The notes: a model not told the origin generated them from the letters alone. A stretch of 64,000 nucleotides of DNA from an uncultured Candidatus Bathyarchaeia archaeon (GCA_964355725.1 CAYHEV010000002.1:3189-67188), one strand, 5' to 3'; positions 2,633-61,899 are shown, numbered from the stretch's first letter. Translations and numbers: made by a program.

Positions 2633-2634
2633 GT

Positions 2635-4464: not shown

Positions 4465-4558
4465 GTCATACCACTTTCTACTCTAGTTGATAGTAGTTGG
4501 TTTCGTGAAGAAGTTTATGTCTCAAGTTTCAGCTTATATTTTTCCGTGCGGGTAGAGG

Positions 4559-5452: not shown

Positions 5453-5456
5453 TTTT

Positions 5457-18362: not shown

Positions 18363-18387
18363 AGAGAAGAGCAGACGAGGTTAAGAA

Positions 18388-19221
18388 ATGAAAAACAAGT
18401 TCAGAATTGCACTTGCACAGATGAGATGCAGCCAAGGAGACAAAAGAGAGAACCTAAAGAAAATTGAGACAAATGTGGCACTTGCAAAAAAACACAATGC
18501 AGAGCTTGTAATCTTCCCGGAACTATCTTTGACCGGTTATGTTATCAGAGATCAAATCTACGAGCTAGCAGAGAAAATCCCAGGACAATCAACAAAGACC
18601 ATCGAAAAAATTGCCAAAAACGCTGGAATGTACATTGTTTTTGGAATGCCAGAATTGAGCGGAAAGGCACAAGCCACTCTTTACAACACCGCCACTCTCG
18701 TGGGCCCGGAAGGCTTCATCGGCAAGTACCGTAAAATGTATCTTCCAACACACAGTGTTTTTGAGGAGAAAAGATATTTCCGCGCAGGATATCAAACCGC
18801 AGTATTTGACACGAAGCTCGGCAAAATAGGCCTTATCATATGCTACGACATTTTCTTCCCAGAAGTAACCCGCCTAACACGTTTACATGGAGCCCAACTG
18901 ATTATCTGTATTTCCGCTTCACCAGGAGTTCGGCGAACGTTTTTTGAAACACTAACGGCGGCTAGAGCGATAGAGAACACGGCTTTCTTGGCTTATGTAA
19001 ATTTGGTAGGTATAGAAGATGGATTGCAGTTTTGGGGAGGAAGCAGACTTATTGGACCAAATGGAAAGATACTTGTTCAGGCAAAATACGACGAAGAGGA
19101 TTTTGTAGTGGGCGAGGTTAATTACACTGACATAAGACCTGTTGAGACCTTTGTCCCAGTACTAAAGGATTTGAGACCAGAACTGTTTGATAAACTAAAG
19201 GAAAGTGCAGAAGAATTATAG
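18388..19221 (+). CDS. Carbon-nitrogen hydrolase (nitrilase superfamily)
   Basis: 277 aa. E-K-C triad contexts FPELSLTGY, YRKMYLP and LIICYDIFFPE. Starts 25 nt downstream of nadE. Confidence 0.8.
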   Translation: MKNKFRIALAQMRCSQGDKRENLKKIETNVALAKKHNAELVIFPELSLTGYVIRDQIYELAEKIPGQSTKTIEKIAKNAGMYIVFGMPELSGKAQATLYNTATLVGPEGFIGKYRKMYLPTHSVFEEKRYFRAGYQTAVFDTKLGKIGLIICYDIFFPEVTRLTRLHGAQLIICISASPGVRRTFFETLTAARAIENTAFLAYVNLVGIEDGLQFWGGSRLIGPNGKILVQAKYDEEDFVVGEVNYTDIRPVETFVPVLKDLRPELFDKLKESAEEL

Positions 19222-22581: not shown

Positions 22582-22882
22582 TTCACAACTTTACAATTCA
22601 CAAGTTATAAGTGTTATAGTGAAAACATTATTTAGAAAACGACAGGGAATGGAAGGAAAACAGATAAACGCCCAAAATTGCAGTGTTCTCCCAGTTACAG
22701 ACTTCACAGACCACTCAAAGTGAAAAACACTGATAGAGAACCGGTAAAAAGAGTTCTCCAGTAGAAACGGAGGGGTGGTTTTTTCACAGTGAAGTGACAT
22801 AAAAAGAGCAAGAAAATGGAAAAGGAGACTTATTAAGAAACATTGTTAAATCAATTTCACAATGTTTTCACAAAAATGTGAA
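22582..22882. repeat. TTCACA/TGTGAA hexamer array
   Basis: 7 copies in about 300 bp. These include the palindromes TTCACAGTGAA (22783-22793) and TTCACAAAAATGTGAA (22867-22882). Rough chance expectation is about 0.2. Confidence 0.6.
22753..22778 (+). promoter_or_regulatory. Origin recognition box ORB-a
   Basis: GTTCTCCAGTAGAAACGGAGGGGTGG has a dyad core plus a G-string. A degenerate half copy GTTCTCCCAGTTACAG lies at 22685-22700. Confidence 0.7.
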
Positions 22883-23014
22883 CTTGGAAGTCGGCACCCC
22901 CCGTCGGTCACTTGAGAGACTATAATTGATAATGGCTACAGGATTAGGGAAGAGGTAAGTGTATAATGTATAAGACATTGGAGTAAGTACGCCTATTATC
23001 AGCGAGATAGAGTG

Positions 23015-23040
23015 CCACCCCTACTGTTCCAGTGGAAAAG
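23015..23040 (-). promoter_or_regulatory. Origin recognition box ORB-b (inverted)
   Basis: The plus strand reads CCACCCCTACTGTTCCAGTGGAAAAG. Its reverse complement CTTTTCCACTGGAACAGTAGGGGTGG matches ORB-a at 19 of 26 positions and contains the canonical TTCCAGTGGAA core. Confidence 0.8.
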
Positions 23041-23196
23041 AAAGCGGAAAAGCTAAATGATTTCTGCGGAAAGATTTTTACGGTATATCGAAAATATTGA
23101 ACTTAAACAGTTATAACGTAGCACTTGACTCTTATCATTCAGAGTATTATTTCTTCATAAGAAAGAAATCAACATTATCAATTGGTTAATATAGAA
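23041..23196. other. AT-rich candidate duplex-unwinding element between inverted ORB-b and ORB-c
   Basis: 156 bp. My hand count gives about 44 G+C (about 28%), visibly below the flanking coding sequence. Confidence 0.55.
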
Positions 23197-23220
23197 TTCC
23201 ACAAGAAACACAGGGGTGTG
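23197..23220 (+). promoter_or_regulatory. Origin recognition box ORB-c
   Basis: TTCCACAAGAAACACAGGGGTGTG has an ORB-like core with a GGGGTG string, in the opposite orientation to ORB-b. Confidence 0.6.
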
Positions 23221-23312
23221 TCTTATATTCTTGACATTTGATTATCTTACAATTACTTCCATTTTAGAATTGTAATGCTAGCGGTTTAGATTTCTGTACG
23301 GGACAACTTATG

Positions 23313-23334
23313 TTTTCCAGAAGAAATAGAGGCG
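23313..23334 (+). promoter_or_regulatory. ORB-like box ORB-d (weak G-string), 29 nt before the orc1/cdc6 ATG
   Basis: TTTTCCAGAAGAAATAGAGGCG matches ORB-a at 17 of 22 positions. Its position suggests autoregulation. Confidence 0.5.
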
Positions 23335-23362
23335 TTACCTTTGAATCTTCGGTGGAGAGATC

Positions 23363-24613
23363 ATGAGCGACGCTAGCATATTGGATGATGTGTTCGACAA
23401 GTTCGTTAGTAACACACGAATTTTTAGGGATAGAGAAGTATTACGCCATGATTACTTGCCTGATAGACTACCGCATAGGGAAGAACAGATTAGACATTTA
23501 GGAGAAACAGTGTCTCCAGTTCTTAAGGGTGCCCGAAGTTCTAACATTTTTGTTTATGGGAAAACTGGCACAGGTAAAACAGCAGTTGCAAAGTATGTAC
23601 TAAGTCATCTTGAGTTTAAGGCAAAGGAGTTCCATGCTCCTGTTAGGTTCTGTTTTGTGAATTGCCACATGGCAGGTTCTGAATATCGTGTTTTTGCTAG
23701 TTTATGCCAGAGTATGGGCCTATCTGTTCCGTTTACTGGGTTGTCAGTTGGCGAAGTCTTTGACCGATTTAGCGCTGGTGTGGACAGCTCCAAGATTATT
23801 CTTATGGTGGTTTTGGATGAAGTTGATGCATTGATCAAAACACGAGGTGATGGTCTTCTCTACGAGCTGACGAGAATAAATGAAATTCTCCGGAAAAGCA
23901 AGGTGACTCTAATTTGCATATCTAACGACTTGCGACTGAAAGAGTTTCTTGATCCCCGTGTTCTTAGTTCATTGAGTGAGGAAGAGATTGTTTTTAGACC
24001 TTATGACGCGGATGAGTTGAGGAATATCCTTTTTGAACGTACTAACTCAGCTTTCTGTGAGAATGCCTTATCTGATGCGGCTCTTGGACTTTGTGCGGCT
24101 CTGGCTGCAGCGGAACATGGCGATGCCAGACGCGCGTTGGATTTGTTACGTGTTGCAGGCGAAATGGCTGAACGGAAGGGTGTGAATGTCGTGACTGAGG
24201 AACATGTCCGAGAGGCTGAAAAGCACATTGAACACAATCGCGTTGTTGAGGCTCTCCAGAATTTGACTCTTCATGCCAAACTAGTTGTTCTGAGCATCTA
24301 CCACTTGAATAGAGTGAGTGCTCACAGTGCTGTCACGGGTGAAATCTATGAGGTTTATAGTGAACTTGGCGGAGAGGTAGGCGTTACTCCTTTAACGCAG
24401 CGACGCTTCAGCTCGTTGGTTAATGAACTTGATGCTATGGGGTTGCTGAACGCGAAGGTTATCAGTATGGGGAGATATGGGCGAACTAAGAAAATTAGGT
24501 TGGATATTTCACGGGGTCTTATTAGGGATGTTTTTGCAGGAGATAGCCGATTTGGTCGTTTGGTTGATTATGACCCTGCGTGTTTCTCAAAAGGTACACC
24601 TAATGAAAGATAA
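23363..24613 (+). CDS. cdc6: Orc1/Cdc6 replication initiator
   Basis: 416 aa. Walker A GKTGTGKT, Walker B VLDEVD, C-terminal winged helix. SD GGTGGAG upstream. Confidence 0.95.
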   Translation: MSDASILDDVFDKFVSNTRIFRDREVLRHDYLPDRLPHREEQIRHLGETVSPVLKGARSSNIFVYGKTGTGKTAVAKYVLSHLEFKAKEFHAPVRFCFVNCHMAGSEYRVFASLCQSMGLSVPFTGLSVGEVFDRFSAGVDSSKIILMVVLDEVDALIKTRGDGLLYELTRINEILRKSKVTLICISNDLRLKEFLDPRVLSSLSEEEIVFRPYDADELRNILFERTNSAFCENALSDAALGLCAALAAAEHGDARRALDLLRVAGEMAERKGVNVVTEEHVREAEKHIEHNRVVEALQNLTLHAKLVVLSIYHLNRVSAHSAVTGEIYEVYSELGGEVGVTPLTQRRFSSLVNELDAMGLLNAKVISMGRYGRTKKIRLDISRGLIRDVFAGDSRFGRLVDYDPACFSKGTPNER

Positions 24614-24667: not shown

Positions 24668-26233
24668 TCAGTCGAATTGCACTACAGTGACTTCCAACGT
24701 CTGAAGGTTCACTACCGGAACCTTCGCTGGTGTTGGGGTAAAACCGTTTCTTCGCATGTAGTCAGTTTGTTCTTGCCAGCATCCAGAATTTACGACTAAA
24801 ACTCCCCGGTAATTTCCATATTCCAGTGCATGCACATGCCCAGCATGGAAAATATCTGGAATTCGCTCAATGACTAAGAAGTCTCTGCTCTCAGGTGACA
24901 AAGGTGTTTTTCCGCCGTAAACTGGTGCTAGGTGGCGACTCTGTAACAGTAACCGCATTGCTTTCTCTGGGTGGCTGTGAGTCATCCCCGGGACTGTCGA
25001 GACAATGTCATCCAAGCTGCGGCCATGATATTCTAATAGTTCTACACCGTGTAGACTGAGAAGGCATGGGCTCCCGAGGGAATGCACCTTTCTTGATTCT
25101 TGCAGAGTCTCCAAGAAGGCTTTTGCTATAGCTGGTTGAGGCAAGGCTTTTCTTGGGGCGTCATGATTCCCAGGTGTAATGATGACTTCTACGTAGTCGG
25201 GAATTTGTTCGATGTATTTTGAGGCAAGTCTGTATTGTTTGTGCACGTCTTTGACTGTCAATTCTTTTATCTGATTGGGATAGACTCCTACTCCGTCAAC
25301 GATGTCACCTGCTACTAGAACATATTTGACGTGGCCGGCAATTTCTCTCATTCTCTCGTTGCCATATTTGCCGTTGAGCCAGAGTATAAAACGGTTGAAG
25401 GCTTCTCTGGTGAATTTTGCGCTGCCTACATGCATGTCTGACGTAAGAACCGCACAGACTGGAACAGGAGCCTTGTGCTGTAATCTCTGCGCTACGTCGG
25501 GCAGAATGATGTCTTCCGCGATTAGAAGGCTGCTTCTTGTTTTCATGACGCTTAGACATATGACTTGGTCAAGGAGAAGAAACCGGGCTTTTTTCTGAAG
25601 CTCTGTCGGGGCGTTCTGTGGTACAAGCACTGTGGCATGGGCCTTTAGATCTTCGATGGTGAGTATGGTTCGCTGTTTCGATTCACGTTTTTCTGTTATC
25701 ATGCCTATTACTTTAAGCCTGGTGTTTGGTTGTGCTCTCAGAGCGTCTAGAATCGAAGTAGCACTCTTAACGTCTATTCTTTGTCGCAGCAGTTTTTCTG
25801 TTCTGTTGAACCTGTCTTGGAAGTATTCTAGGAAGTCTTCGATTGTTCCGTTTGTGCTTATCTTAGTAGTTGGGTCTTCGATTATGTTTATGTTTGCTTC
25901 AATCTCTCTTGCATAGGGGTGAAAGGGCGTTTTCGATTCTGTCATCTGCGTTGCCTGCGTTGTAGAATGAGTTTGAAGAGTGGACTCTGACGGTTGCATA
26001 ATTATTTCTTTTGCTGAATCTAGAGGTTCTAAAAGTTGTTCCAGAACACTTCTTTCGATAAAGAATGGTTTTTCTTTTAATTTTCCTATTTGCCGTATTG
26101 CCTTGCTCACGAGTTCAGCTGGATCTTCTGTTGCGGCTATTAGGTTTAGGAACTCAAAAGCTTCTTTGTTAAGTTGGTATCCTGCTGCAATTGTTTGTTC
26201 TACAGCTTTCTGCAGTTTTTGTGCTTCACTCAT
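24668..26233 (-). CDS. polB: DNA polymerase II (PolD) small subunit DP1 (3'-5' exonuclease)
   Basis: 521 aa. Calcineurin-like phosphoesterase motifs VAGDIVDGVG, PGNHD and HAGHVH. Confidence 0.9.
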   Translation of the reverse strand: MSEAQKLQKAVEQTIAAGYQLNKEAFEFLNLIAATEDPAELVSKAIRQIGKLKEKPFFIERSVLEQLLEPLDSAKEIIMQPSESTLQTHSTTQATQMTESKTPFHPYAREIEANINIIEDPTTKISTNGTIEDFLEYFQDRFNRTEKLLRQRIDVKSATSILDALRAQPNTRLKVIGMITEKRESKQRTILTIEDLKAHATVLVPQNAPTELQKKARFLLLDQVICLSVMKTRSSLLIAEDIILPDVAQRLQHKAPVPVCAVLTSDMHVGSAKFTREAFNRFILWLNGKYGNERMREIAGHVKYVLVAGDIVDGVGVYPNQIKELTVKDVHKQYRLASKYIEQIPDYVEVIITPGNHDAPRKALPQPAIAKAFLETLQESRKVHSLGSPCLLSLHGVELLEYHGRSLDDIVSTVPGMTHSHPEKAMRLLLQSRHLAPVYGGKTPLSPESRDFLVIERIPDIFHAGHVHALEYGNYRGVLVVNSGCWQEQTDYMRRNGFTPTPAKVPVVNLQTLEVTVVQFD

Positions 26234-30113: not shown

Positions 30114-30240
30114 GCCGGGGTGGCGGAGTGGTTATCGCGCTGGCCTCGAGATCTTGAAACGAAAAGGGGCTTGTAATAAGAGGACAAGTAAGCCAGTGGG
30201 CCTTTGGCTCGCAGGGGTTCGAGTCCCTTCCCCGGCGCCA
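30114..30240 (+). tRNA. tRNA-Ser(CGA) with an anticodon-loop intron and encoded CCA
   Basis: Hand fold. Acceptor GCCGGGG/CCCCGGC, D arm GCGG-AGTGGTTA-TCGC, anticodon stem CTGGC/GCCAG. The loop is CTCGAG^A with anticodon CGA at 30147-30149. An insert of about 40 nt (30151-30190) sits at the canonical 37/38 site. The long variable arm is GGGCC-TTT-GGCTC, the T arm is AGGGG-TTCGAGT-CCCTT, and the discriminator is G followed by CCA. Confidence 0.85.
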
Positions 30241-47068: not shown

Positions 47069-47929
47069 CTACGCACTGATTCTTGTAATTTCCAAACCTA
47101 TATCCAATGCCTTTGTGCTGTCTGTTATCTCGCCTAGACTTACGATGTCAACTCCAGTTGAGGCGAACGTTAAAATGTTTTCCGCTGTGATTCCGCCACT
47201 GGCTTCCAGTAGAATCTTCCCCAGACAATTTGCCTCTTCTAGTAGATTGATTGCTTTTGCTATTTGCTTTGGTGAGAAGTTGTCCAGCATGATTATGTCT
47301 GCTCCTGCTCGCACCGCTGCCAAAATGTCGTCAACTTTTGAGATTTCAACTTCAATTTTCTTACTGAATGATGAATTCTTGGCTTTCTTAATGGCTTTTT
47401 CAACGTTTCCCGCTATCGCAATGTGGTTGTCTTTAATCAAAACCATGTCATCCAAGTGTAATCTATGTGTTTCGCCTCCTCCTATGAGAACAGCTTTTTT
47501 GTCAAAATAAAGTAGCCCCGGTGCTGTTTTTCGTGTACAGGCAACCTTTGTTTTGAGTTCAGCTTTCTGAAGTCTCTCTACGAGGCTTCTTGTGTTTGTC
47601 GCAATACCGCTCATTCGTGAAAGGATGTTTAGGAGTGTGCGTTCAACTGAAAGAATCGTTCGTGCATTCCCCTGAATTTTCATCAAAATCTGTTTGGCCT
47701 TCATTTTTTCTCCGTCAGTAACCAAAGTTTCAACCTTTAGTCCCACGCTTTCCAGAAGGATTTTTGATTCTTCGATTCCTGCGGGAACTCCTGACTCTTT
47801 AGCTATTACTTTAGCTTCAGCAGTGCATTCTGCCGGAACAATCAGCGCGGTGGTTATGTCTCCTTGCCCCAAGTCTTCCACGAGCATTCTTTGAAGTTTT
47901 TCTTTCAAGATTTCGTTTGGCAGAAACAT
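47069..47929 (-). CDS. nadC: Nicotinate-nucleotide pyrophosphorylase (quinolinate phosphoribosyltransferase)
   Basis: 286 aa. CTRKTAPGL, GGGETHRLHLDDMVLIKDNH and IMLDNF motifs. Confidence 0.9.
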   Translation of the reverse strand: MFLPNEILKEKLQRMLVEDLGQGDITTALIVPAECTAEAKVIAKESGVPAGIEESKILLESVGLKVETLVTDGEKMKAKQILMKIQGNARTILSVERTLLNILSRMSGIATNTRSLVERLQKAELKTKVACTRKTAPGLLYFDKKAVLIGGGETHRLHLDDMVLIKDNHIAIAGNVEKAIKKAKNSSFSKKIEVEISKVDDILAAVRAGADIIMLDNFSPKQIAKAINLLEEANCLGKILLEASGGITAENILTFASTGVDIVSLGEITDSTKALDIGLEITRISA

Positions 47930-51143: not shown

Positions 51144-51373
51144 CTGCTGATTCCTTGACTCGTGAAAAATGAGATTTCAGTGGATGAAACTTTCTTGACA
51201 ACATGCACATGAAAAATGAAATTGCAATTAACAATGCTAGAAAGAACTGTTTGTTGGGTATTCTGGAATTATGTCTGGTGAAATACGCATTACTGTGAGT
51301 GCTGCGACTTTTAAGTGGTCTGCAATATCAAACCCAGCTTATAAGGCAGTTCAAACAAAACAGTATACTTGGG

Positions 51374-51907
51374 ATGGTCTCTTTGGTCAAACGTGGACTT
51401 TATGTTGGCAGATTCCAGCCTTTTCATCTTGGTCATCTAAACGTGGTGAAAGGCATTCTTGAAGAGGTTGACGAACTGGTAGTAGTTGTCGGCAGCGCTC
51501 AGTATAGTCACAAGCTTGATAATCCGTTTACGGCAGGCGAAAGGTTGACAATGATTCGGAACGCCTTAAATGGAGCGGAGATAGATTATGGACGTGTCTG
51601 GGTTGTGCCTGTGCCTGACATGCACTTACACATGATGTGGGTTTCCGCTGTGAAGGGCTACACTCCACATTTTGACGTTGTCTATTCCAATGAACCGCTA
51701 ACGAGGAGACTGTTCACAGAGGCTGGATATGACGTCAAAGCTGTGCGTTTTTATGATAGGAAATTGTATGCGTCGACCCAAATTAGGGAGAAGATGCTTA
51801 AGGGCGAAAGCTGGGAAAAGTTTGTGCCTAAAAATGTGGCTGCCTTCATAAAAGACATAGACGGCGTTAATAGACTTCGGGACCTCAACAAGAGCGACAA
51901 GATGTGA
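51374..51907 (+). CDS. Nicotinamide-nucleotide adenylyltransferase (archaeal type)
   Basis: GLYVGRFQPFHLGHL motif right after the internal ATG at 51374. The track start at 51299 adds an implausible leader. Confidence 0.85.
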   Translation: MVSLVKRGLYVGRFQPFHLGHLNVVKGILEEVDELVVVVGSAQYSHKLDNPFTAGERLTMIRNALNGAEIDYGRVWVVPVPDMHLHMMWVSAVKGYTPHFDVVYSNEPLTRRLFTEAGYDVKAVRFYDRKLYASTQIREKMLKGESWEKFVPKNVAAFIKDIDGVNRLRDLNKSDKM

Positions 51908-53357: not shown

Positions 53358-53408
53358 AACTTTTAATACTCTGATGTGAATTCTCAAGCTGCATTTCGGA
53401 GGATAAAA

Positions 53409-54005
53409 GTGTCTTCAAAAACTAAGAAAGTACGGGATAAATGGCGAAGCAAAACATGGTACATGGTAATGGCCCCACCGTACTTCGGAAACATCGAGTT
53501 GGGAGCAGTGCCAGCCGACGAACCAGAGAAACTGATTGGAAGAGTAATTGACTCAACCCTCTACGATATTACAAACGATTTCAGTCATCAATATTTGAAG
53601 ATGTATTTCCAAGTAACCGAAATCGACGGCAAAACCGCCAAAACCCTCTTTAAAGGACATGAATATTCACGAGATTATCTGCGAAGCCTCGTCAGAAGGA
53701 GGACCACAAAAGTCGACGGCATATTTACAATCATCACAAAGGACGGATACAAACTTCAAATCGCCGTCTCCGCTTTCACTCTCTCACGGATCAAGACGTC
53801 ACAAGAGAAAGACATACGCGTCATAATGGAAAAAATAATTAAAGACAAAGCCACCACACTAACGATGGATCAATTTGCACAAGAAATAGTTCTTGGAAAA
53901 ATAGCCTCAGACATATACAACACCGCAAAGAAAATAGCACCACTAAGACACGTAGGCATTAGAAAATCAAAGCTCGTAATGAAACTGGAACAGTTACAAG
54001 CCTAG
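53409..54005 (+). CDS. rps3ae: 30S ribosomal protein S3Ae (eS1)
   Basis: KKVRDKWRSKTWYMVMAPPYF motif. I prefer the GTG at 53409, preceded by GGAGG, over the track start at 53376. Confidence 0.85.
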   Translation: MSSKTKKVRDKWRSKTWYMVMAPPYFGNIELGAVPADEPEKLIGRVIDSTLYDITNDFSHQYLKMYFQVTEIDGKTAKTLFKGHEYSRDYLRSLVRRRTTKVDGIFTIITKDGYKLQIAVSAFTLSRIKTSQEKDIRVIMEKIIKDKATTLTMDQFAQEIVLGKIASDIYNTAKKIAPLRHVGIRKSKLVMKLEQLQA

Positions 54006-54547
54006 GTTTTCAGAAGATTTTTGCCACATTCATAACCTTTTTCAAAAGCTTTCAGGTTTAGTTCTTCTGTACCTTTAGGTATATTCTCTTTAATTGACTC
54101 CTTGATGACCTCTCCATTCAACAAGTTTGTTATTGCCGTAAATGCGCCTAGCATAACGATGTTTGCAACTATTTTCTTGCCTAGTTCGTCTGCAAATCTC
54201 GTGGCAGGAATTCGAAAGACTTTCACGTTCGCAATTTCTTTTTCATGCGGGATCATATCAGGATCAATAATTATTGTTCCGCCAAGCTTCACGTCTCCGA
54301 CATAATCATTGTAGGCATGTTGAGACATTACAACCAACACGTCAGGCTCAACAACTTTGGGGAAATCAATTTCCTCCTCTGATATGACAACTTCAGACTT
54401 GCACGCTCCGCCTCTTGACTCCGGACCATAAGATTGTGTTTGAACTGCATTCTTCCCTCCATGAATAGATGCAGCTGCAGCCACAATTATTCCAGATTTA
54501 ATTATGCCTTGACCGCCAAACCCTGCAAATCTAACTTCTATTCGCAT
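54002..54547 (-). CDS. korG: 2-oxoacid:ferredoxin oxidoreductase gamma subunit
   Basis: 181 aa. GFGGQGI motif. Last gene of a D-A-B-G gene order. Confidence 0.8.
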   Translation of the reverse strand: MRIEVRFAGFGGQGIIKSGIIVAAAASIHGGKNAVQTQSYGPESRGGACKSEVVISEEEIDFPKVVEPDVLVVMSQHAYNDYVGDVKLGGTIIIDPDMIPHEKEIANVKVFRIPATRFADELGKKIVANIVMLGAFTAITNLLNGEVIKESIKENIPKGTEELNLKAFEKGYECGKNLLKT

Positions 54548-54553
54548 GTCGCC

Positions 54554-55393
54554 TCACCATTCCATAGTTTTCTCGTTTATGTGAGCTATTTTCTCGTGGA
54601 GTAACTTTTCATAGCTCACTTTTTCTATGTTCGAAAATTCGCCCACAACTATCTTGTCTGGTGTAATATCCGCTTTCGATGGGTCAGAAAAGTTTTCAAC
54701 TACAGAAGCCCTTCTGAACCACTCCATCATCTCAAGCGGTGAACGCATCTTGTTGCGACGGCCAAAAATCTCCGGACAAGGTGAAACAACTTCAATGAAA
54801 CCAAACCCTTCCTTCTGTAGCAACTTCTTGATAGACTGTGTCAGTCTCCGCACGTGCAGTGTTGTCCATCTGGCCACATATGTTGCGCCGGACGCAGCCG
54901 CCAAATGAACAAGGTTGAACGGGTGTTCAATGTTCCCATAAGGCGTGGTCGCTGTCAATCCCCCAATCGGTGTCGTTGGGCCTTGCTGGCCCCCAGTCAT
55001 TCCGTAGTTGAAGTTGTTCGCACAGATCACTTTTATTCCTATGTTCCTGCGTGCTGCATGAATAAAGTGGTTTCCTCCTATTGCAAAGAGGTCGCCGTCC
55101 CCGCTTATGATCACAACTTCCAATTCCGGATTCGCCAGCTTCACACCTGTTGCAAAGGCTATTGCGCGTCCATGTGTGGTGTGGAAAGAATCTGCGTTAG
55201 TGTATCCAGCTGCGCGTCCAATGCAACCGATACCTGAGACAACCACTAATTTATCTAAATCTTCTTGCAACTCGTCTAGTGCGTGAACGAAACAATTGAG
55301 TACAATGCCGTTGCCACAACCTGGACACCAGATGTGAGGCATCATTGCTTGTCTTAGATACTTTGAAAAAGGGTGCACTGTTTCCTGAACCAT
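54554..55393 (-). CDS. korB: 2-oxoacid:ferredoxin oxidoreductase beta subunit (TPP)
   Basis: 279 aa. WCPGCGNG and GDGDLFAIGGNH TPP motifs. Confidence 0.85.
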   Translation of the reverse strand: MVQETVHPFSKYLRQAMMPHIWCPGCGNGIVLNCFVHALDELQEDLDKLVVVSGIGCIGRAAGYTNADSFHTTHGRAIAFATGVKLANPELEVVIISGDGDLFAIGGNHFIHAARRNIGIKVICANNFNYGMTGGQQGPTTPIGGLTATTPYGNIEHPFNLVHLAAASGATYVARWTTLHVRRLTQSIKKLLQKEGFGFIEVVSPCPEIFGRRNKMRSPLEMMEWFRRASVVENFSDPSKADITPDKIVVGEFSNIEKVSYEKLLHEKIAHINEKTMEW

Positions 55394-56553
55394 TAAGTAC
55401 TCCTCCTTATCACTTCAAGGATCTCTCCGGGTGTATGTGGGTCTTCACCCAATTTCGATAGAAAGGCTACGGGGGTTTCTTTAGCAGTTCTCTCGACTTC
55501 CCGCACCAGTTGTCCACAATTCATTTCTGGCATAACAATTGCCTTAGCTTGTGCAGCTATCTTTGCAACTTGCTTTTCTGGGAAAGGCCAAAGCGTAACC
55601 AAACGTAGAAGTCCAGCTTTTATTCCAGCGGTTCTCGCTTTTCTCACAGCGCTCAAAGCGGCTCTTGCAACTATTCCATAAGCGACGACAACTACGTCGG
55701 CATCTTCAAGCATTGTTTCTTCAGTCTTTATTATTTTGTCAGCGTTTCTGCTTATCTTTTCACAGAGTCTCTTTACAAGCGCAGATTGAACGTCTGAACT
55801 TTGCGTCTTTGGATAACCATATTCATCATGTGTTAAACCTGTAGCGTGAAAACGGTACCCTTCTCCGAAACAAGCCATGGGCGGAACCAAATTGTCGTCC
55901 GGCATAAACGGTCCATACTTATCTGGTGAAACATGCGGCTTTTTTCGAGTCAGTATCTTCATTTCAGACGCGGAAGGTATTACAACTTTTTCCCACATGT
56001 GCGCCACGATCTCATCCCCCATCAGAAGGGTCGGAACTCTGTAGGTTTCAGACAGGTTGAACGCTTCAAGAGTTAAATCAAACATTTCCTGAACAGAAGA
56101 AGGTGACAAGGCAATGATTCCATAATCTCCATGAGAACCCCACTTCGCCTGCATCACATCTTGCTGACCTGGCAAAGTGGGTTGTCCAGTGCTCGGTCCG
56201 CCACGCATGATATCCACTATCACACAGGGAGTTTCGGTCATAACAGCCAATCCTATGTTTTCCTGCATCAAACTGAAACCTGGCCCAGAGGTGGCGGTCA
56301 TCGCTTTCAAGCCAGCATAGGAAGCACCAATTACAGCCGCTATGGAGGCGATTTCATCTTCCATTTGTATGTAGATTCCGCCGAATTCCGGCATTCTTTC
56401 CGACAAGTGTTCAGCAATCTCTGTCGCTGGCGTAATCGGATAACCTGCAAAAAATCTGCAGCCAGCCGCTATTGCTCCTTCTGCGCATGCAACATCGCCA
56501 TTCATGAAGTGAGCGCCTGTTAATAACGTTCTTTTTCCAGTCATTCTCAACAT
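55393..56553 (-). CDS. korA: 2-oxoacid:ferredoxin oxidoreductase alpha subunit
   Basis: 386 aa. GYPITPATE motif. Its stop overlaps the korB ATG by 1 nt. Confidence 0.85.
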   Translation of the reverse strand: MLRMTGKRTLLTGAHFMNGDVACAEGAIAAGCRFFAGYPITPATEIAEHLSERMPEFGGIYIQMEDEIASIAAVIGASYAGLKAMTATSGPGFSLMQENIGLAVMTETPCVIVDIMRGGPSTGQPTLPGQQDVMQAKWGSHGDYGIIALSPSSVQEMFDLTLEAFNLSETYRVPTLLMGDEIVAHMWEKVVIPSASEMKILTRKKPHVSPDKYGPFMPDDNLVPPMACFGEGYRFHATGLTHDEYGYPKTQSSDVQSALVKRLCEKISRNADKIIKTEETMLEDADVVVVAYGIVARAALSAVRKARTAGIKAGLLRLVTLWPFPEKQVAKIAAQAKAIVMPEMNCGQLVREVERTAKETPVAFLSKLGEDPHTPGEILEVIRRST

Positions 56554-56825
56554 CCCTCCTCACATGGTTTTTCAACAACGAAAATTGCAAAATCTGGACA
56601 AACCGCAGTGCAAAAGCTGCATACGATACATTTACTCTCGTCAACAATTCTAGGCGGATTAACTCCTCTTGCATTGATTTCTTGCGATTCTTCTAGAACC
56701 TTTTTCGGACAGAATTTGATGCAATAACCACATCCTTTGCACTGATCCTTGATTAAGTGGATCTCTGCTTTTGGTTGCTTCACGTTTTTGCTGTCAAGTG
56801 GTGGGTGCTTAATTCTTTCCGGCAT
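56547..56825 (-). CDS. korD: 2-oxoacid:ferredoxin oxidoreductase delta subunit (ferredoxin)
   Basis: 92 aa. CKGCGYCIKFCP and CIVCSFCTAVCP motifs. 7-nt overlap with korA. Confidence 0.8.
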   Translation of the reverse strand: MPERIKHPPLDSKNVKQPKAEIHLIKDQCKGCGYCIKFCPKKVLEESQEINARGVNPPRIVDESKCIVCSFCTAVCPDFAIFVVEKPCEEGC

Positions 56826-56827
56826 AA

Positions 56828-59266
56828 TTAACCATCCGATAGTGCCTTTTCAAAAACCTTTCTAGCGTTTTCTATCTCTTCTGATGTAACGTTCTCAACT
56901 ATCGCTTTCATTTCTCTCACTTTATTAGCGAATCTTTCTCCTTCTGCTGCTGACGCCCAAAGTAACTGCAGTCTCTCTTTGTTCAATCCGTTTTGTTCCA
57001 TCTTCTTCCATAAACGCTCCACACGTTTCTGAGTTTGGTAGTTGGCGTTGATGTAGTGGCAATCCCCTAGATGACAGCCAGTAACCATTACGGCTGCTGC
57101 TCCTCTCGCAAACGCCCTTTCAACGAATTTCGGCGACACACGCCCGGAACACATAGTTCTGATTATACGAACATTAGGCGGATACTGCATTCTGCTGACT
57201 CCTGCAAAGTCTGCACCTGCATACGAGCACCAATTACAGCAAAAGGCCACAATCTTCTTGTCAGCATCATGTTCTGTCATGGCGTCTATTTGTGCAATGA
57301 TCTGTTCATCAGTAAAGTGGCTCTGGGTCAAAGCGCCAAAAGGACATTCTGCTGAACACGTCCCACATCCGCCGCACGCTGCCTCTATGATATTGATCTG
57401 CTTTGCCCCCTTGTTGAGGGTTATGGCATTGTACGGACAAACCTTGGTGCATAGTCCGCAAGCTTTGCATTTCTCAGGAAAAGCAATAGGCGTAATAGCT
57501 TCCACGGTCACCTTTCCCTTTGCCATCAGGATGCCTGCACGTGCTGCGGCAGCACTAGCTTGCGTCACGCTATCTTTGATGTCTTTCGGGGATTCGGCGC
57601 AACCTGCAAAGAACACGCCGCCTGTAGCAGCATCCACTGGTCTCAGTTTCGGATGGGCTTCCATGAAAAATCCATCTTGGTTTCTTGAAAGCGTCAGCAA
57701 GCGTTGGATGCTTTCGCTGTCCTTTCTTGCCTCTAGACCTACCGAAAGGATCGCCATGTCAACGCTTATCTTATAAAGTTCCTTCTGCAACGTATTTTCG
57801 CCGATGAGCCACAGATTGCGGGTTTTTCTGTCTTCCATTATTTCAGCTGTGAGTCCTCGAATGAATATGACGCCCGCTTTTCTTGCCCGTTTATAGAGAT
57901 CTTCGAAACCTTTTCCATACGCGCGTATGTCAACGTAGAACACGTAGATCTCAGTTTCAGGCCAATGTTCCTTGATAAGTAGGCTATCTTTAATCGTATT
58001 CATGCAGCAGACATTGCTGCAATATAATTTTCCGTTTCTGTCAGAGCGAGAACCGACACATTGAATGAACGCTACACGTTTGGGAATCTGCTTGTCACTT
58101 GGTCGTATTAGGTGTCCCCCGGATGGGCCGCCAGCGTTAATCAGTCTTTCAAATTCGAGTGACGTGATAACGTTTGGAAATTTACCATATCCATAGTTAG
58201 GCAAAGTTGACGGATCGAACACGTCTGCACCAGTAGCCACTATCACAGTGCCTACTTCAAGATCTACAGTTTCGGGTTTCATTTCAAAATTCACGGCTTG
58301 TCTTTCGCAGGCTCTCATACACTTGTCGCAAACAACTACGCCGTCTTTGTTGAGGCATAAGTTCATGTCTATTATGTATGTGGCTGGAACAGCTTGTGCG
58401 AATGGAGTATAAATGCCGTGTCTTGTGGCTAGGCCGACATCAAATTCATTTGGAACTGCGATTGGGCAGACTTTGGTGCATTCTCCACAAGCGGAACAAT
58501 CTTTTGTAACATACCGCGGTTTTCTAAGCACTTTAATATGGAAATTGCCTATGTATCCTTTTACTTCAGTGACTTCACTATTAGCTAAGAGTTCGATGTT
58601 TGGATGGTGCCCAACATCGGACATCTTGGGTGCCAGAATGCAGATGGAGCAGTCCATTGTTGGGAAGGTTTTGTCTATTCGCGCCATCATGCCGCCGATA
58701 CTGGGTTCTTTCTCAACGAGGTACACTTTATACCCAGTATCTGCAAGGTCTAGGGCAGCTTGAATGCCTGCTACTCCGCCTCCTATGATTAAGGCTCTTC
58801 GCGTTATAGGCACTTCAATTTCTTCGGCAGGTTCAAGCAAGGCAGCTTTAGCTGCAGCCATTTTCACAAGGTCTTTAGCCTTTTCCGTGGCGGCATCTCG
58901 GTCATATAAATGGACCCAACTGCAGTGTTCTCGTATGTTAGCCATCTCGAAAAGATACTTGTTTAATCCGGCGTCCTCGCATGCTTTTCTAAATGTTGGT
59001 TCATGTAGACGCGGGGAGCACGAAGCTACAACAACCCGATTGAGCCTCTGCTCTTTGATGTCTTTCTTGATTCCTTCCTGTCCTTGGTCGGAACAGGTGT
59101 ATCTGTTGTCTTGAGCCAAAACAACGTGTGGAAGTGTACTAGCGAATTTTGCAACTTGGGCGCAGTCCACAGAGCCTGCTATGTTTAGGCCACAGTGGCA
59201 CACATACACTCCAATACGAGGTTCTTCGCCTGCCTGCTTACGTTCAGATCCTCTATTTTCCGCCAT
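56828..59266 (-). CDS. hdrA: HdrA-like flavoprotein fused to a C-terminal MvhD domain
   Basis: 812 aa. IGVYVCHCGLNIAG N-domain, FAD motif IIGGGVAGIQAALDLA, and inserted and C-terminal ferredoxin motifs (CSACGECTKVCP, CKACGLCTKVCP, CGGCGTCSAECP). These are followed by the MvhD-like KIVAFCCNWCSYAGAD...RTMCSGRV...GCHLGDCHY. Confidence 0.85.
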   Translation of the reverse strand: MAENRGSERKQAGEEPRIGVYVCHCGLNIAGSVDCAQVAKFASTLPHVVLAQDNRYTCSDQGQEGIKKDIKEQRLNRVVVASCSPRLHEPTFRKACEDAGLNKYLFEMANIREHCSWVHLYDRDAATEKAKDLVKMAAAKAALLEPAEEIEVPITRRALIIGGGVAGIQAALDLADTGYKVYLVEKEPSIGGMMARIDKTFPTMDCSICILAPKMSDVGHHPNIELLANSEVTEVKGYIGNFHIKVLRKPRYVTKDCSACGECTKVCPIAVPNEFDVGLATRHGIYTPFAQAVPATYIIDMNLCLNKDGVVVCDKCMRACERQAVNFEMKPETVDLEVGTVIVATGADVFDPSTLPNYGYGKFPNVITSLEFERLINAGGPSGGHLIRPSDKQIPKRVAFIQCVGSRSDRNGKLYCSNVCCMNTIKDSLLIKEHWPETEIYVFYVDIRAYGKGFEDLYKRARKAGVIFIRGLTAEIMEDRKTRNLWLIGENTLQKELYKISVDMAILSVGLEARKDSESIQRLLTLSRNQDGFFMEAHPKLRPVDAATGGVFFAGCAESPKDIKDSVTQASAAAARAGILMAKGKVTVEAITPIAFPEKCKACGLCTKVCPYNAITLNKGAKQINIIEAACGGCGTCSAECPFGALTQSHFTDEQIIAQIDAMTEHDADKKIVAFCCNWCSYAGADFAGVSRMQYPPNVRIIRTMCSGRVSPKFVERAFARGAAAVMVTGCHLGDCHYINANYQTQKRVERLWKKMEQNGLNKERLQLLWASAAEGERFANKVREMKAIVENVTSEEIENARKVFEKALSDG

Positions 59267-59267
59267 T

Positions 59268-60740
59268 TCATTGTCCTCCTAAAGATTCCAAGTGATTCTC
59301 GATCGACTCTGCGGCGCATTTTCCAGCTCGGATCGCTTCAATTACCGTTGCTGGGCCTGTCACTACATCGCCGCCGGCAAAAACTCCTTTAAGAGTGGTT
59401 TCCATGGTTATGGGATTAACCCAGATCGTTCCATCTTCATTCAACTCAATCTCCTTTGGCAAGAACTCCAAATCTGGAGCTTCACCTATAGCAAGAATAA
59501 CCCTGTCAGTTTCTCGTGTAAACTCCGACCCTTCTATTGGAATGGCTTTTCTTCTTCCAGTTTCGTCTGGTTCGTCCAGCTTCATACGCACACACTCGAT
59601 AGCGGAAATCTTCCCGTTTTCTTCAAGAAACTTTTTCGGCGAAACCAAAAACTCGATTTTCACACCTTCATTTTCAGCTTCTTTAACCTCCCACGGAATT
59701 GCAGGCATCTCATCTCTTGATCTTCGATACAGTATGGTCACTTTTTTTGCTCCAAGCTTCAAGGCGGTTTTTGCCGCATCCATAGCAACATTTCCGCCAC
59801 CAATTACGACAACATTTTTTCCAACGCCAACTTCTTCCCCGGAGTTGATACTCCACAAGAAGTCAAGAGCATGGATTACACCTTTCGATTCTCCGCCTTC
59901 AATCTTCAGTCTCTGGTTTTTATGTGCACCAACACCAACAAAAACAGCCTTATACCCTTCCCTCCAGAGATCTTTGAAATTGAGGTCTCTGCCAATTGTT
60001 ACACCAGTTTTTATTTCCACGCCTAAATCACTTAAGAGCTTGATTTCCTTGTCTAAAACTTCTCTTGACAAACGATAACTGGGTATGCATTTTCGCAGCA
60101 TCCCACCAGCCTCTGGCAAGTTTTCAAAAACAGTGACGCCATACCCTTTGCGGCTTAGCTCATATGCAACTGTCAGTCCGGCGGGACCAGCACCTATTAC
60201 GGCAATCTTTCCTTCAGGAACTTTTTGTGCTCGCTTAGTTTTTTCGTTTTTTAGATGTTCTTCATACATTTTTGTAAGTTTTTCCAAGACTTTGTCCTTG
60301 TCTTGTCCTGCACGTTCTGGATGAAAACAGACGATTGTTGTTGTAAGTGGCAGAGGAATGTTTTCTGCGATCTTCTGAAGGACACTTTCAAAAGACTTTG
60401 GATGGTCTCCTTCTGCGGCAATTGTTCGAACGAAAAGAAAAATTTCGGGCAACTTTAGAGCTTGGGGACAATGTTTTTGGCATCGATAGCACCATGCGCA
60501 GAGCCACAGTTCATCGGAAGTCAAGACGCTCTCGGAGTTTAGGAAGATTCTTTCAAGTAGGTTTCTTGGGTTGTAGTTGTTTTTCATCAGTTCTGACATG
60601 GGGCAGCTGGCTGTGCAGATTCCGCATTCAAAGCAGTATTTGAGTCGGTCAGCGTCCAAAAGTTTTTCAATGTCTTCCTTGGAGATTGTTGGTTTTGCTG
60701 TTCCCAAGTCTTCGGCCTCTTTAATATTGGGGTTTCCCAC
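59268..60740 (-). CDS. HdrC-like 2x[4Fe-4S] domain fused to a GltD/NfnB-like NAD(P)H:FAD oxidoreductase
   Basis: 490 aa. CFECGICTASCP and CAWCYRCQKHCP, then two dinucleotide folds IAVIGAGPAGLTVAYEL and VVVIGGGNVAMDAA. The GTG start at 60740 is uncertain. The stop lies 1 nt before the hdrA ATG. Confidence 0.75.
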   Translation of the reverse strand: MGNPNIKEAEDLGTAKPTISKEDIEKLLDADRLKYCFECGICTASCPMSELMKNNYNPRNLLERIFLNSESVLTSDELWLCAWCYRCQKHCPQALKLPEIFLFVRTIAAEGDHPKSFESVLQKIAENIPLPLTTTIVCFHPERAGQDKDKVLEKLTKMYEEHLKNEKTKRAQKVPEGKIAVIGAGPAGLTVAYELSRKGYGVTVFENLPEAGGMLRKCIPSYRLSREVLDKEIKLLSDLGVEIKTGVTIGRDLNFKDLWREGYKAVFVGVGAHKNQRLKIEGGESKGVIHALDFLWSINSGEEVGVGKNVVVIGGGNVAMDAAKTALKLGAKKVTILYRRSRDEMPAIPWEVKEAENEGVKIEFLVSPKKFLEENGKISAIECVRMKLDEPDETGRRKAIPIEGSEFTRETDRVILAIGEAPDLEFLPKEIELNEDGTIWVNPITMETTLKGVFAGGDVVTGPATVIEAIRAGKCAAESIENHLESLGGQ

Positions 60741-60852
60741 AAATATAAAAGTTTACAAACGTAAAGATTTTGAAGAGACAGACAAAAAAACAATGTTTTA
60801 ATTATAGTTTTTATAGATTCGAACGCAATAAAGCATGAGACAATAGGGATGA

Positions 60853-61899
60853 GTGGTTGTGGGAAAAGTGAAAGTTGTTTCCTATGGAGTCGGCGCTGTA
60901 GGAAGTATGATTGCAAGGTTTCTGCTTGAAAAAGAGGGCGTAGATTTGGTAGGTGCGATTGACATAGCGAAAGACAAAGTGGGCAAAGATCTTGGTGAAG
61001 TATTGGGTTTGGAGAAAAAGCTTGGAATAACGGTTTCAGGGGATGTGGGCTCTTTGCTTTCAGAAGAGCCTGATATTGTCATCCATGCAACTGCATCTTA
61101 CTTAAAAGACACGTTTCCACAGATTGCTTCAATCATAAAACATGGAATCAACGTAATATCCACATGCGAAGAATTGTCGTATCCCTATACCGCTGAGCCT
61201 AAACTTGCCGAGAAACTTGATTCACTGGCAAAAAAGCATGATGCAACAGTTTTGGGTACAGGCATAAACCCCGGTTTTCTTATGGACACCCTTGTAATAA
61301 CACTCACCGCTCCATGCCAGAAAATTGAGAGGATCCAAGCAGTCAGAATAATGAATGCCGCTACACGACGAGTGCCGTTCCAGAAAAAGATAGGCGCCGG
61401 TCTGTCAGTTGAAGAGTTTAAAGAGAAAATCGAAAAGAAACAGATCACTGGGCATGTGGGACTTGAACAATCAATCGCCATGATAGCGGGCGCTTTGGCG
61501 TGGAAACTTGACTGTATAATCACTGAACCAGTCGAACCAATAATAGCGAAAAGGCCGGTCAGAAGCAAAGATATAAGAGTCAAGGCAGGCCAAGCGGCTG
61601 GTCTGAGACAAAAGGCAAAAGGAATAATCAGGAACAAAACTGTCTTAAGCCTAGATTTTCAAGCATACATAGGTGCCGAGGAAGAATGTGATATCATAAC
61701 AATCGAAGGCGTTCCAAACATTAGACAGAAGATCCAGCCATGTGTCCATGGCGATGTAGGCACGGTTGCAATGGTTGTCAACTCGATTCCAAAGGTAATT
61801 AATGCACCACCGGGGTTACTTACAATGAAGGATTTGCCAGTACCATCCGCCGCTATAGTAGACATGCAAAAATATGTTTCAGAATGGGAAGATCATTGA
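60853..61899 (+). CDS. DapB-N-like NAD(P)-dependent dehydrogenase (2,4-diaminopentanoate/amine dehydrogenase-like)
   Basis: 348 aa. N-terminal Rossmann VVSYGVGAVGSMIARFLLEK. The overall layout resembles the dihydrodipicolinate-reductase-like amine dehydrogenase family. Specificity is unknown. Confidence 0.5.
   Translation: MVVGKVKVVSYGVGAVGSMIARFLLEKEGVDLVGAIDIAKDKVGKDLGEVLGLEKKLGITVSGDVGSLLSEEPDIVIHATASYLKDTFPQIASIIKHGINVISTCEELSYPYTAEPKLAEKLDSLAKKHDATVLGTGINPGFLMDTLVITLTAPCQKIERIQAVRIMNAATRRVPFQKKIGAGLSVEEFKEKIEKKQITGHVGLEQSIAMIAGALAWKLDCIITEPVEPIIAKRPVRSKDIRVKAGQAAGLRQKAKGIIRNKTVLSLDFQAYIGAEEECDIITIEGVPNIRQKIQPCVHGDVGTVAMVVNSIPKVINAPPGLLTMKDLPVPSAAIVDMQKYVSEWEDH

Follow-up and report, generated by a model that had tools for sequence, protein, structure and literature searches.

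An operon at positions 54002-60740 of the window, a 64,000-nucleotide stretch from the genome of an uncultured Candidatus Bathyarchaeia archaeon (GCA_964355725.1, CAYHEV010000002.1:3189-67188), combines a 2-oxoacid:ferredoxin oxidoreductase (OFOR) with an HdrA-MvhD fusion and an HdrC-domain flavoprotein of the GltD/NfnB type. The six genes were tentatively read as encoding one soluble multi-subunit oxidoreductase, in which the electrons of a 2-oxoacid would be split between NADP+ and ferredoxin. Within the class Bathyarchaeia the operon is a core trait, and its six genes form a mobile module. Bathyarchaeia rank with the most abundant archaea of anoxic sediments, and knowledge of their energy metabolism comes from genomes alone. 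How ferredoxin and NAD(P)H are kept in balance in Bathyarchaeia in the absence of Rnf, Ech and Nfn is an open point (PMC7886697).

Organisation of the operon

The operon consists of six consecutive open reading frames (ORFs) on the minus strand, encoding the HdrC/GltD fusion (G1), the HdrA-MvhD fusion (G2) and KorD, KorA, KorB and KorG (G3 to G6; Table 1). The coordinates, order and junctions given in a preliminary description of this DNA agreed with the ORF listing to the base, and the domain content it had assigned to the six proteins was matched by Pfam and NCBIfam. From G1 to G6 the junctions measured +1, +2, -7, -1 and +6 nt, the largest internal gap being 6 nt, and a GGAGG-like motif was located just 5' of the start of each downstream gene. 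The divergent spacer upstream of G1 is the sole place in the unit roomy enough for a promoter. The TATA-like element TTTATATTT lies directly 5' of the GTG codon of G1 at 60740. Because this element abuts the annotated GTG and most homologues comprise 478 amino acids, the true start of G1 is probably the TTG at 60707, with a product of 479 amino acids. At the other end, the korG stop codon overlaps the convergent end of the S3Ae gene by 4 nt (54002-54005), which leaves no terminator room between the two units. A bacterial promoter and terminator scan of 53800-61000 was uninformative, with counts below those in shuffled sequence and a bacterial consensus unsuited to archaea.

Domain structure of the six proteins

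Judged by its sequence, G1 is an HdrC two-cluster domain joined to an FAD/NADPH module of the NfnB/GltD type that has no clusters of its own. Pfam detected a Fer4_8 dicluster domain together with Pyr_redox_2 (123 bits) and GltD-like domains. No NCBIfam cut-off was reached, the best model being NF009410 with 361 bits against 516. Residues 32-116 aligned with residues 30-113 of HdrC (5ODC_C) with 68.6 bits and both CxxCxxCxxxCP motifs intact, and all eight cysteines of this domain were invariant among 15 homologues. The HdrC portion comprises the cluster domain alone, fused to the flavoprotein; the C-terminal part of HdrC is missing. Fer4_20, the two-[4Fe-4S] domain of GltD and NfnB, was not detected in G1 by Pfam and was detected in ordinary relatives. 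C138 is the sole cysteine between the HdrC domain and the FAD fold. The best sequence matches in the PDB were 9BOV_A and 9N5U_A (NfnABC), 8OH5_C (StnC) and 5JCA_L (NfnI-L, 255 bits). An AlphaFold2 model of G1 (pLDDT 77, pTM 0.80) had NfnI-L 5JCA_L as its best Foldseek match (E 1e-36), and the same NADPH-binding structures came first as in the sequence search. The catalytic part is thus of the NfnB/GltD type by sequence and predicted fold, in line with the NAD(P)H-oxidising GltD/NfnB-type subunit of the preliminary description. The motif LYRRSRxEMPA, presumably associated with NADPH binding in the GltD/NfnB family, is retained; some distant relatives carry acidic residues at this place. An apparent longer variant of G1 (P0002, 578 amino acids) proved to be a chimeric assembly with an internal duplication.

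The sequence of G2 points to a complete HdrA with the structural prerequisites for bifurcation. It scored 1273.9 bits with the NCBIfam model HdrA2 (NF040770), above the cut-off of 1100, and 845 bits over the full, collinear length of HdrA from Methanothermobacter wolfeii (5ODC_A). The N-terminal cluster domain, the thioredoxin-reductase-like FAD domain and the inserted and C-terminal ferredoxin domains were all present, and none of the cysteine motifs that 5ODC_A has in its cluster and ferredoxin domains was lost. The flavin-adjacent lysine is represented by K426, which aligned with K409 of the 5ODC HdrA, and the motif DCSICILAPKM (C194/C197 equivalents) was identical in both proteins. The fused MvhD tail matched MvhD 5ODC_D with 158 bits. 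The preliminary description had named HdrA as the electron-bifurcating module of heterodisulfide reductase complexes, and G2 appears complete and competent for this role by sequence. The inserted ferredoxin domain of G2 holds a 6-residue insertion relative to the M. wolfeii protein. An insertion of 5-6 residues was considered as a docking mark for KorD and discarded as non-discriminating, since it also occurs in HdrA proteins unlinked to kor genes.

KorABG and the delta-like G3 together form what is, by sequence, a complete four-subunit OFOR of the Kor (2-oxoglutarate-type) clade. Alpha, beta, gamma and delta subunits all had Pfam matches, and alpha and gamma passed generic NCBIfam models for 2-oxoacid:acceptor oxidoreductases. 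G4 showed POR_N and PFOR_II and reached 582 bits with NF006412 (cut-off 411); its best PDB match was 1YD7, a 2-keto acid:ferredoxin oxidoreductase of P. furiosus, followed by the 2-oxoglutarate enzymes 8YS5 and 6N2N. G6 showed the POR domain (130 bits) and 250 bits with NF006323 (cut-off 235). For G5, with the domain TPP_enzyme_C, the best NCBIfam model was the beta subunit of 2-oxoglutarate:ferredoxin oxidoreductase (NF007207, 270 bits, under the cut-off of 364), and for G3, with Fer4 families, it was OGOR_delta (NF042987, 63 bits, under the cut-off of 125). The substrate is probably 2-oxoglutarate, as far as these matches indicate. The preliminary description had contrasted this OFOR, as an additional copy, with a porGDAB operon at 4559-7489. 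The separate operon is real; the term additional copy was loose, as the Por type is a different OFOR class and no duplicate.

Partners expected from known Hdr complexes were missing. Pfam found no CCG domain in any of the six operon proteins and no CCG/HdrB, [NiFe]-hydrogenase or formate dehydrogenase domain in 39 flanking ORFs of the window, which are nearly all larger ORFs outside the operon (five larger and the small ORFs were left out). These 39 ORFs comprised housekeeping genes and the porGDAB operon. Neither was hdrB2C2 present in the window. On a Bathyarchaeia contig of 1.46 Mb (locus L001), HdrB, hydrogenase and formate dehydrogenase were absent within 10 kb on either side of the operon. 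The same Pfam method detected a true CCG protein in metagenome locus L088. The earlier claim that no such partner accompanies the genes therefore extends from the scanned ORFs of the window to 10 kb around the operon in L001.

Conservation, inheritance and transfer

Conservation of the gene order, proposed as a check in the preliminary description, was examined in a GTDB-based collection with one genome per species. The scan yielded 187 relatives of G1, and the best 80 loci were analysed by searching their six-frame ORFs with the window proteins, a locus being counted as complete if six collinear genes were each matched over at least 80% of their length. All six genes were present and collinear, in the order G1 to G6, in 56 of the 80 loci, with tight estimated junctions of about -26 to +25 nt. 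Two further loci (L036 and L074) had the identical gene order with frameshifted ORFs, and about 20 of the 80, truncated at contig ends, agreed with the order as far as they reached. The exceptions were two loci, L075 and L083. A recurrence of the arrangement in 56 species-level genomes is far more than chance would produce. Matches of about 2.1 kb obtained with tblastn in L042, L048, L052 and others were considered as inserts or fusions; ORF analysis showed normal, adjacent G1 and G2 genes. L083 is a 2.3-kb contig on which a G2 fragment is divergent from G1, which reflects a rare rearrangement or else an assembly error. An extra HdrA-MvhD paralogue with 40% identity to G2 was located immediately upstream of G1 in the Bathyarchaeia genome L041 (7511-9877).

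Nearly all loci carrying the operon belonged to Bathyarchaeia and two to Asgard archaea. Syntenic flanks of the operon point to vertical inheritance within Bathyarchaeia. HdrA-MvhD is constrained more strongly than ribosomal protein S3Ae, as its median identity to the window protein exceeds that of this neighbour (Table 1). The divergent DAP_DH-like gene was a neighbour of the operon in 49 of the 56 loci; it was absent beside the Asgard copies and was for this reason rejected as part of the unit. A contig labelled Anaerolineales (L081) showed MoaE, DAP_DH-like, G1 and G2 genes in the synteny of the Bathyarchaeia type and is probably mis-binned.

The Asgard copies, L042 on the Atabeyarchaeia-1 chromosome and L045 in LC30, comprised exactly six genes with unrelated flanks. 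Since the copies are confined to these six genes in unrelated surroundings and a TnpB-like gene stands beside the L045 copy, the unit was apparently transferred whole into Asgard archaea. DUF362 and UDG genes precede both copies (L042 7917-9695; L045 859-3842), and the TnpB-like gene of L045 (Cas12f1-like_TNB) lies immediately upstream of the cluster. As hints to function, the Asgard flanks (DUF362, UDG, TldD/PmbA and the TnpB-like gene) were not informative.

Variant loci and relatives outside the clade

In L075, the chromosome of Bathyarchaeota bin91 (CP070640.1, 9800-16800), a G1-G2-G3 unit is convergent with a more distant korD'ABG. The delta subunit encoded by this korD' is degenerate and has lost two cysteine ligands, amounting to one whole cluster; the full G3 stays with G1 and G2. 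Co-transcription of the six genes is hence not obligatory.

The architecture of HdrC domain plus GltD was confined to a handful of 50%-identity clusters (P0121-P0126 and P0164) among 1.84 billion cluster representatives searched, and ordinary GltD-like proteins numbered in the thousands in the same search. Matches of 900-1500 amino acids were HdrA proteins with an inserted Fer4_20+GltD module, known as 'type III HdrA / HdrA-NfnB' of ANME-1 and Bathyarchaeota (PMC9012536, PMC12054007). By sequence, NADPH modules are thus physically joined to HdrA in other lineages, though there the ferredoxin arm carries them.

A metagenome scan seeded with the distant HdrC-GltD proteins returned four kinds of locus. 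L086 and L087 held the six-gene cluster again. L084 (Ga0307433_1004030, 168-5962) encoded a Fer4_11 protein, a G1-like protein (54%), HdrA-MvhD (69%) and then a polyferredoxin of 320 amino acids, whose gene occupies the position of korD; kor genes were not present on this contig. L088 encoded an HdrA-GltD fusion, an HdrBC fusion and EtfAB. In L093, L157, L127, L139, L141 and L131, genes for OFOR alpha, beta and gamma subunits adjoined an ordinary Fer4_20 GltD-like gene without HdrA, and the flavoprotein of L157 bears a C-terminal korD-like dicluster domain. Many metagenome loci place these genes side by side, so the pairing of an OFOR with a GltD-type NAD(P)H flavoprotein is a recurrent theme. 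These loci represent a widespread, apparently little-studied class of NAD(P)-linked OFORs.

Proposed electron flow and alternatives

In the solved complexes (5ODC and related), the flavin of HdrA has three arms. Electrons enter from a donor module by the MvhD arm, leave for a high-potential acceptor by the HdrC arm and reach ferredoxin or a polyferredoxin through the inserted ferredoxin domain. G1 would dock on HdrA at the site of HdrC, and NADP+/NADPH would take the place of HdrB and the heterodisulfide at the end of the high-potential arm. This placement of NADP(H) on the HdrC arm, made because G1 appears to carry the clusters of HdrC, is the best-supported step of the wiring and leaves one of the two remaining arms for the OFOR. 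We propose that it is the electron-input module in the hydrogenase's stead. Oxidative decarboxylation of a 2-oxoacid, probably 2-oxoglutarate, dependent on thiamine pyrophosphate (TPP) would supply electrons, which would run from the KorB cluster over the clusters of G3 and the [2Fe-2S] cluster of MvhD to the FAD of HdrA. There each pair would be split. One electron would go downhill through the HdrC-type clusters and the FAD of G1 to NADP+, and the second would leave through the inserted ferredoxin domain of HdrA to ferredoxin (Fd), at a potential no higher than the substrate's. The net reaction would be 2 2-oxoacid + 2 CoA + NADP+ + 2 Fd(ox) -> 2 acyl-CoA + 2 CO2 + NADPH + 2 Fd(red). The E0' values are about -500 mV for the 2-oxoglutarate couple and -320 mV for NADP+. 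By lifting the second electron to ferredoxin, HdrA would save roughly 180 mV otherwise lost. The complex would in this way conserve more energy than the simple OFOR-GltD pairs, in which NAD(P)+ receives both electrons. Bifurcation is tentatively assigned to the flavin of HdrA, though the FAD of G1 may have this role instead.

The position of the OFOR on the MvhD arm is narrowly favoured over a position on the low-potential arm. It leaves MvhD as the adaptor to a multi-subunit iron-sulfur enzyme, as in complexes fed with H2, formate or NADH/ferredoxin, and it requires the least change from the OFOR-GltD pairs, whose electrons must flow from the 2-oxoacid to NAD(P)+. In the H2-, formate- and NADH/ferredoxin-fed complexes of the HdrA type that were checked, an adaptor of the MvhD type links the input module (bioRxiv 10.64898/2026.04.10.717634). 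In favour of the complex as a whole are the gene order kept in 56 species-representative genomes and its occurrence as just these six genes in Asgard archaea, the high identity of G2, KorA and KorB relative to S3Ae and SerRS, the completeness of HdrA, the HdrC clusters of G1, the lack of other partners among the scanned ORFs and around the operon in L001, and the pairing of GltD-like modules with HdrA or with an OFOR in other lineages.

Several points weigh against this reading. The physical contact between OFOR and HdrA is one that we infer, and the inserted ferredoxin domain is an equally possible docking site for KorD, as it is for polyferredoxins in the supercomplexes of methanogens; in L084, a polyferredoxin gene stands after G2 at the korD position. 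In L075, the G1-G2-G3 and korD'ABG genes are separate, convergent units. With an ordinary ferredoxin as acceptor both branches are downhill, and coupling is not energetically required. The preference for NADP over NAD is derived from a motif, and KorB and KorD scored under the NCBIfam cut-offs specific for 2-oxoglutarate. HdrA2 of M. acetivorans uses free ferredoxin and F420 with no partner on MvhD (PMC5296606).

An alternative that we consider somewhat unlikely retains the complex and reverses its wiring. The OFOR would sit on the low-potential arm at the inserted ferredoxin domain, comparable to the Fmd/MvhB polyferredoxins in methanogen supercomplexes, and free ferredoxin would react at the side of MvhD and the C-terminal ferredoxin domain. 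The device would be reversible and Nfn-like, with the reaction NADPH + 2-oxoacid + CoA + 4 Fd(ox) <-> NADP+ + acyl-CoA + CO2 + 4 Fd(red). In the catabolic direction, electrons of NADPH would be raised to the level of ferredoxin by the surplus of the OFOR, allowing NADPH re-oxidation in amino-acid fermentation; in the anabolic direction, ordinary ferredoxin would be boosted for reductive carboxylation (2-oxoglutarate synthesis) and NADPH would be made. With textbook values, (-320 + about -500 to -520)/2 gives about -410 to -420 mV, a typical ferredoxin potential. The potentials would balance almost exactly, so that the enzyme would operate near equilibrium, which would suit energy-limited sediment archaea. 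The polyferredoxin that follows G1-G2 in L084 fits this wiring, as does the uptake of electrons from free ferredoxin by HdrA2 of M. acetivorans (PMC5296606). A direct transfer of low-potential electrons from HdrA to enzymes of the pyruvate:ferredoxin oxidoreductase type was suggested for methanogens (PMC13580544) and one from Hdr to 2-oxoglutarate:ferredoxin oxidoreductase (OGOR) for tubeworm symbionts (PMC6315080). Neither Rnf nor Ech is encoded in Bathy-6 genomes, and where the reduced ferredoxin comes from is an open problem (PMC7886697). However, the reversed wiring leaves the fused MvhD without a partner, unlike in the Mvh-, Fdh- and Bam-type HdrA complexes checked, and the simple OFOR-GltD clusters elsewhere point to an ancestral state in which electrons passed from 2-oxoacid to NAD(P)+, rather than to NADPH as co-donor.

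Slightly less likely still is that OFOR and Hdr modules form no complex. G1-G2, perhaps with G3 as a ferredoxin of its own, would then act independently as an NADPH:ferredoxin oxidoreductase and might bifurcate with the help of a third partner whose gene lies elsewhere; kor would encode an ordinary 2-oxoglutarate oxidoreductase. One operon would serve solely for co-expression of two enzymes acting on the same ferredoxin pool, and co-transcription is common for enzymes that share a carrier. The loci L075, with its G1-G2-G3 unit and a separate kor operon with its own degenerate delta, and L084, with G1-G2 and a polyferredoxin on a contig without kor, are consistent with such a division, and HdrA2 alone shows ferredoxin:F420 oxidoreductase activity (PMC5296606). 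Yet in the window a single delta-like ferredoxin serves both modules and its gene overlaps korA by 7 nt, the tight junctions are kept in 56 species, and the six genes travel together into Asgard genomes. Furthermore, an HdrA flavin with NADPH and ferredoxin as its two partners has no evident use for three arms and MvhD. A genuine reductase of heterodisulfide or another disulfide, in which HdrBC from elsewhere would bind G2 and G1 and Kor would be alternative inputs, is very improbable: NCBIfam does name G2 HdrA2 above its cut-off, HdrABC is often annotated in Bathyarchaeia and a complete Bathy-6 genome lists HdrCB about 140 genes from the MvhD/HdrA gene (PMC11697101), but the HdrC domain of G1 should fill the HdrC site and exclude a separate HdrBC, no CCG-domain gene occurred among the scanned ORFs of the window or within 10 kb in L001, and the unit was transferred and conserved without hdrBC.

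Implications of a single complex

If the six proteins form one complex, it would be the first HdrA-type system in which a pyridine nucleotide replaces the disulfide of HdrB and a TPP enzyme is the partner, and a new donor/acceptor combination for flavin-based bifurcation. The complex would link amino-acid carbon, NADPH and ferredoxin. Automatic annotation reads parts of the operon as 'heterodisulfide reductase A2', 'glutamate synthase small subunit' and 'Kor'. Metabolic models of Bathyarchaeia and some Asgard archaea in which these genes are counted for a metabolism dependent on H2 or heterodisulfide would then need revision.

A more far-reaching version is improbable. The 2-oxoacid at about -500 mV would again be the donor and NADP+ the downhill acceptor, and the second electrons would be delivered far below the usual range of ferredoxin, down to roughly -650 mV. 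If true, Bathyarchaeia would possess a soluble, ATP-independent source of 'super-reduced' ferredoxin for the reduction of CO2 to formyl-methanofuran or CO, of acids to aldehydes and of aromatic rings, and for radical-enzyme activation, which would help to explain life on recalcitrant carbon at a very low energy supply.

Features of the window

Table 1. Features of the six-gene operon and its flanks in the 64,000-nucleotide window. Median identities are to the window proteins over the 56 complete loci.
Feature	Coordinates	Strand	Description or basis	Median identity (%)
G1, HdrC-domain/GltD-NfnB-type flavoprotein fusion	59268-60740	-	490 aa, GTG start; NADP(H) module	66
G1 residues 32-116, HdrC-like two-[4Fe-4S] domain	60393-60647	-	alignment to HdrC 5ODC_C	
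G1 residues 117-485, linker and GltD/NfnB-type FAD and NADPH domains	59286-60392	-	PDB matches, AlphaFold2 model	
G2, HdrA-MvhD fusion	56828-59266	-	812 aa; bifurcating flavoprotein core (predicted)	86 (highest of the six)
G2 residues 14-664, HdrA proper	57275-59227	-	collinear with 5ODC_A residues 2-650	
G2 residues 669-792, fused MvhD ([2Fe-2S]) adaptor	56891-57262	-	Pfam FlpD, 166 bits	
G3, KorD-like 2x[4Fe-4S] ferredoxin subunit	56547-56825	-	92 aa; candidate bridge between OFOR and HdrA	78
G4, OFOR alpha subunit, Kor type	55393-56553	-	386 aa	82
G5, OFOR beta subunit, TPP and [4Fe-4S]	54554-55393	-	279 aa	83
G6, OFOR gamma subunit	54002-54547	-	181 aa	78
Divergent intergenic spacer	60741-60852		112 nt; TATA-like elements	
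Ribosomal protein S3Ae	53376-54005	+	bounds the operon downstream, with seryl-tRNA synthetase	79
Seryl-tRNA synthetase (SerRS)			flank	77
DAP_DH-like dehydrogenase	60853-61899	+	bounds the operon upstream, with MoaE	74
MoaE			flank	68

The DAP_DH-like gene upstream of the operon encodes DapB_N and DAP_DH_C domains and resembles 2,4-diaminopentanoate dehydrogenase. MoaE and SerRS, like the DAP_DH-like and S3Ae genes, lie on the plus strand. Genes for NAD(P) cofactors were unusually many for a window of 64 kb: NAD kinase, NAD synthase with a CN-hydrolase, quinolinate phosphoribosyltransferase and an NMNAT-type nucleotidyltransferase were encoded at 167-1006, 17508-19221, 47069-47929 and 51299-51907. 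A candidate chromosomal replication origin was located at 22600-24613, where an AT-rich stretch (33-39% GC) with the inverted repeats AATGTTTTCAC/GTGAAAACATT lies ahead of an orc1/cdc6 gene (23363-24613). The genes for both PolD subunits are near this candidate origin (12728-16144 and 24668-26233). The sole Rfam match in the window was a tRNA gene of 124 nt at 30114-30237, which must contain an intron. This tRNA and the Bathyarchaeia labels of the closest homologues assign the window to a Bathyarchaeia-like archaeon.

Comparison with known systems

A description of the six-gene cluster was not found in the searchable open-access literature. The preliminary description had not recognised it as a described enzyme system, which holds within this literature, though related proposals exist (PMC6315080). 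In the paper on a complete Bathy-6 genome, 'MvhD/hdrA' and 'MvhB' stand side by side as components of hydrogenase and Hdr (PMC11697101). For Atabeyarchaeia, a high expression of HdrA and transcription of a 2-oxoacid oxidoreductase were reported and the two were not linked; the supplement of that paper could not be mapped unambiguously to the six-gene cluster and was discarded as a source of expression data.

The operon shares full-length HdrA, MvhD and HdrC-type cluster domains with MvhAGD-HdrABC of methanogens (5ODC; related 7BKB, 8RVU and 9SW2). In contrast to this complex, it lacks HdrB with its CCG domains and non-cubane clusters as well as the MvhAG hydrogenase, its MvhD is fused to HdrA, its HdrC is cut to the cluster domain on an NADPH flavoprotein, and an OFOR is the sole other catalytic module. 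Bathyarchaeia are not known to make coenzyme M (CoM) or coenzyme B (CoB). The fusion architecture of G2 is that of HdrA2 in HdrA2B2C2 of Methanosarcina acetivorans, which reduces CoM-S-S-CoB together with HdrB2C2, F420H2 and ferredoxin, whereas the operon provides the HdrC-GltD fusion and korDABG (PMC5296606). HdrA-MvhD fusions in non-methanogens were noted by Yan et al. 2017 and their roles left open (PMC5296606).

The FAD/NADPH part of G1 is closest, in sequence and predicted fold, to NfnAB/NfnI, NfnABC and StnABC (5JCA, 4YLF, 9BOV, 9N5U and 8OH5), and like Nfn the system encoded by the operon would link NADP(H) and ferredoxin. It differs in that G1 has the clusters of HdrC instead of Fer4_20 and in that a partner of the NfnA or NuoEF type is missing. 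The combination of an OFOR with a GltD-like NAD(P)H flavoprotein is shared with the clusters found in metagenomes and with phenylglyoxylate:NAD+ oxidoreductase PadEFGHI, which we take to be a characterised OFOR of this kind; names of the Pad family appeared in the NCBIfam search. The metagenome clusters have no HdrA or MvhD and their flavoprotein retains Fer4_20; NAD(P)+ should receive both of their electrons, with no branch to ferredoxin. Unlike in the Pad-type enzymes, the HdrA-MvhD of 812 amino acids stands between flavoprotein and OFOR in all 56 complete loci.

Direct wiring of an Hdr-type complex to OGOR was also proposed for flxABCD-hdrABC with korABCD and tfrAB in tubeworm symbionts and Chromatiaceae (PMC6315080). 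That system is bacterial and has FlxABCD as NADH input, HdrBC and a thiol:fumarate reductase as the proposed high-potential sink; the proposal is based on genomes and concerns reductive carboxylation alone. The class II benzoyl-CoA reductase BamB-I likewise uses an HdrA-type module (BamE with BamF/MvhD) outside thiol chemistry, but with BamGHI as input for NADH and ferredoxin, the tungsten protein BamB as output and a fused double HdrA, and an OFOR served as external ferredoxin reducer in the assays (bioRxiv 10.64898/2026.04.10.717634). Type III HdrA/HdrA-NfnB and large HdrL-like proteins also have a GltD/NfnB-type module joined to HdrA (PMC9012536, PMC12054007). In type III HdrA this module is inserted in the ferredoxin domain, i.e., the low-potential arm, and keeps Fer4_20, whereas in the operon it is a separate protein attached via an HdrC domain, i.e., the high-potential arm, and an OFOR is present. 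Altogether, the operon is best classed as a new variant among the modular bifurcating complexes of the HdrA type.

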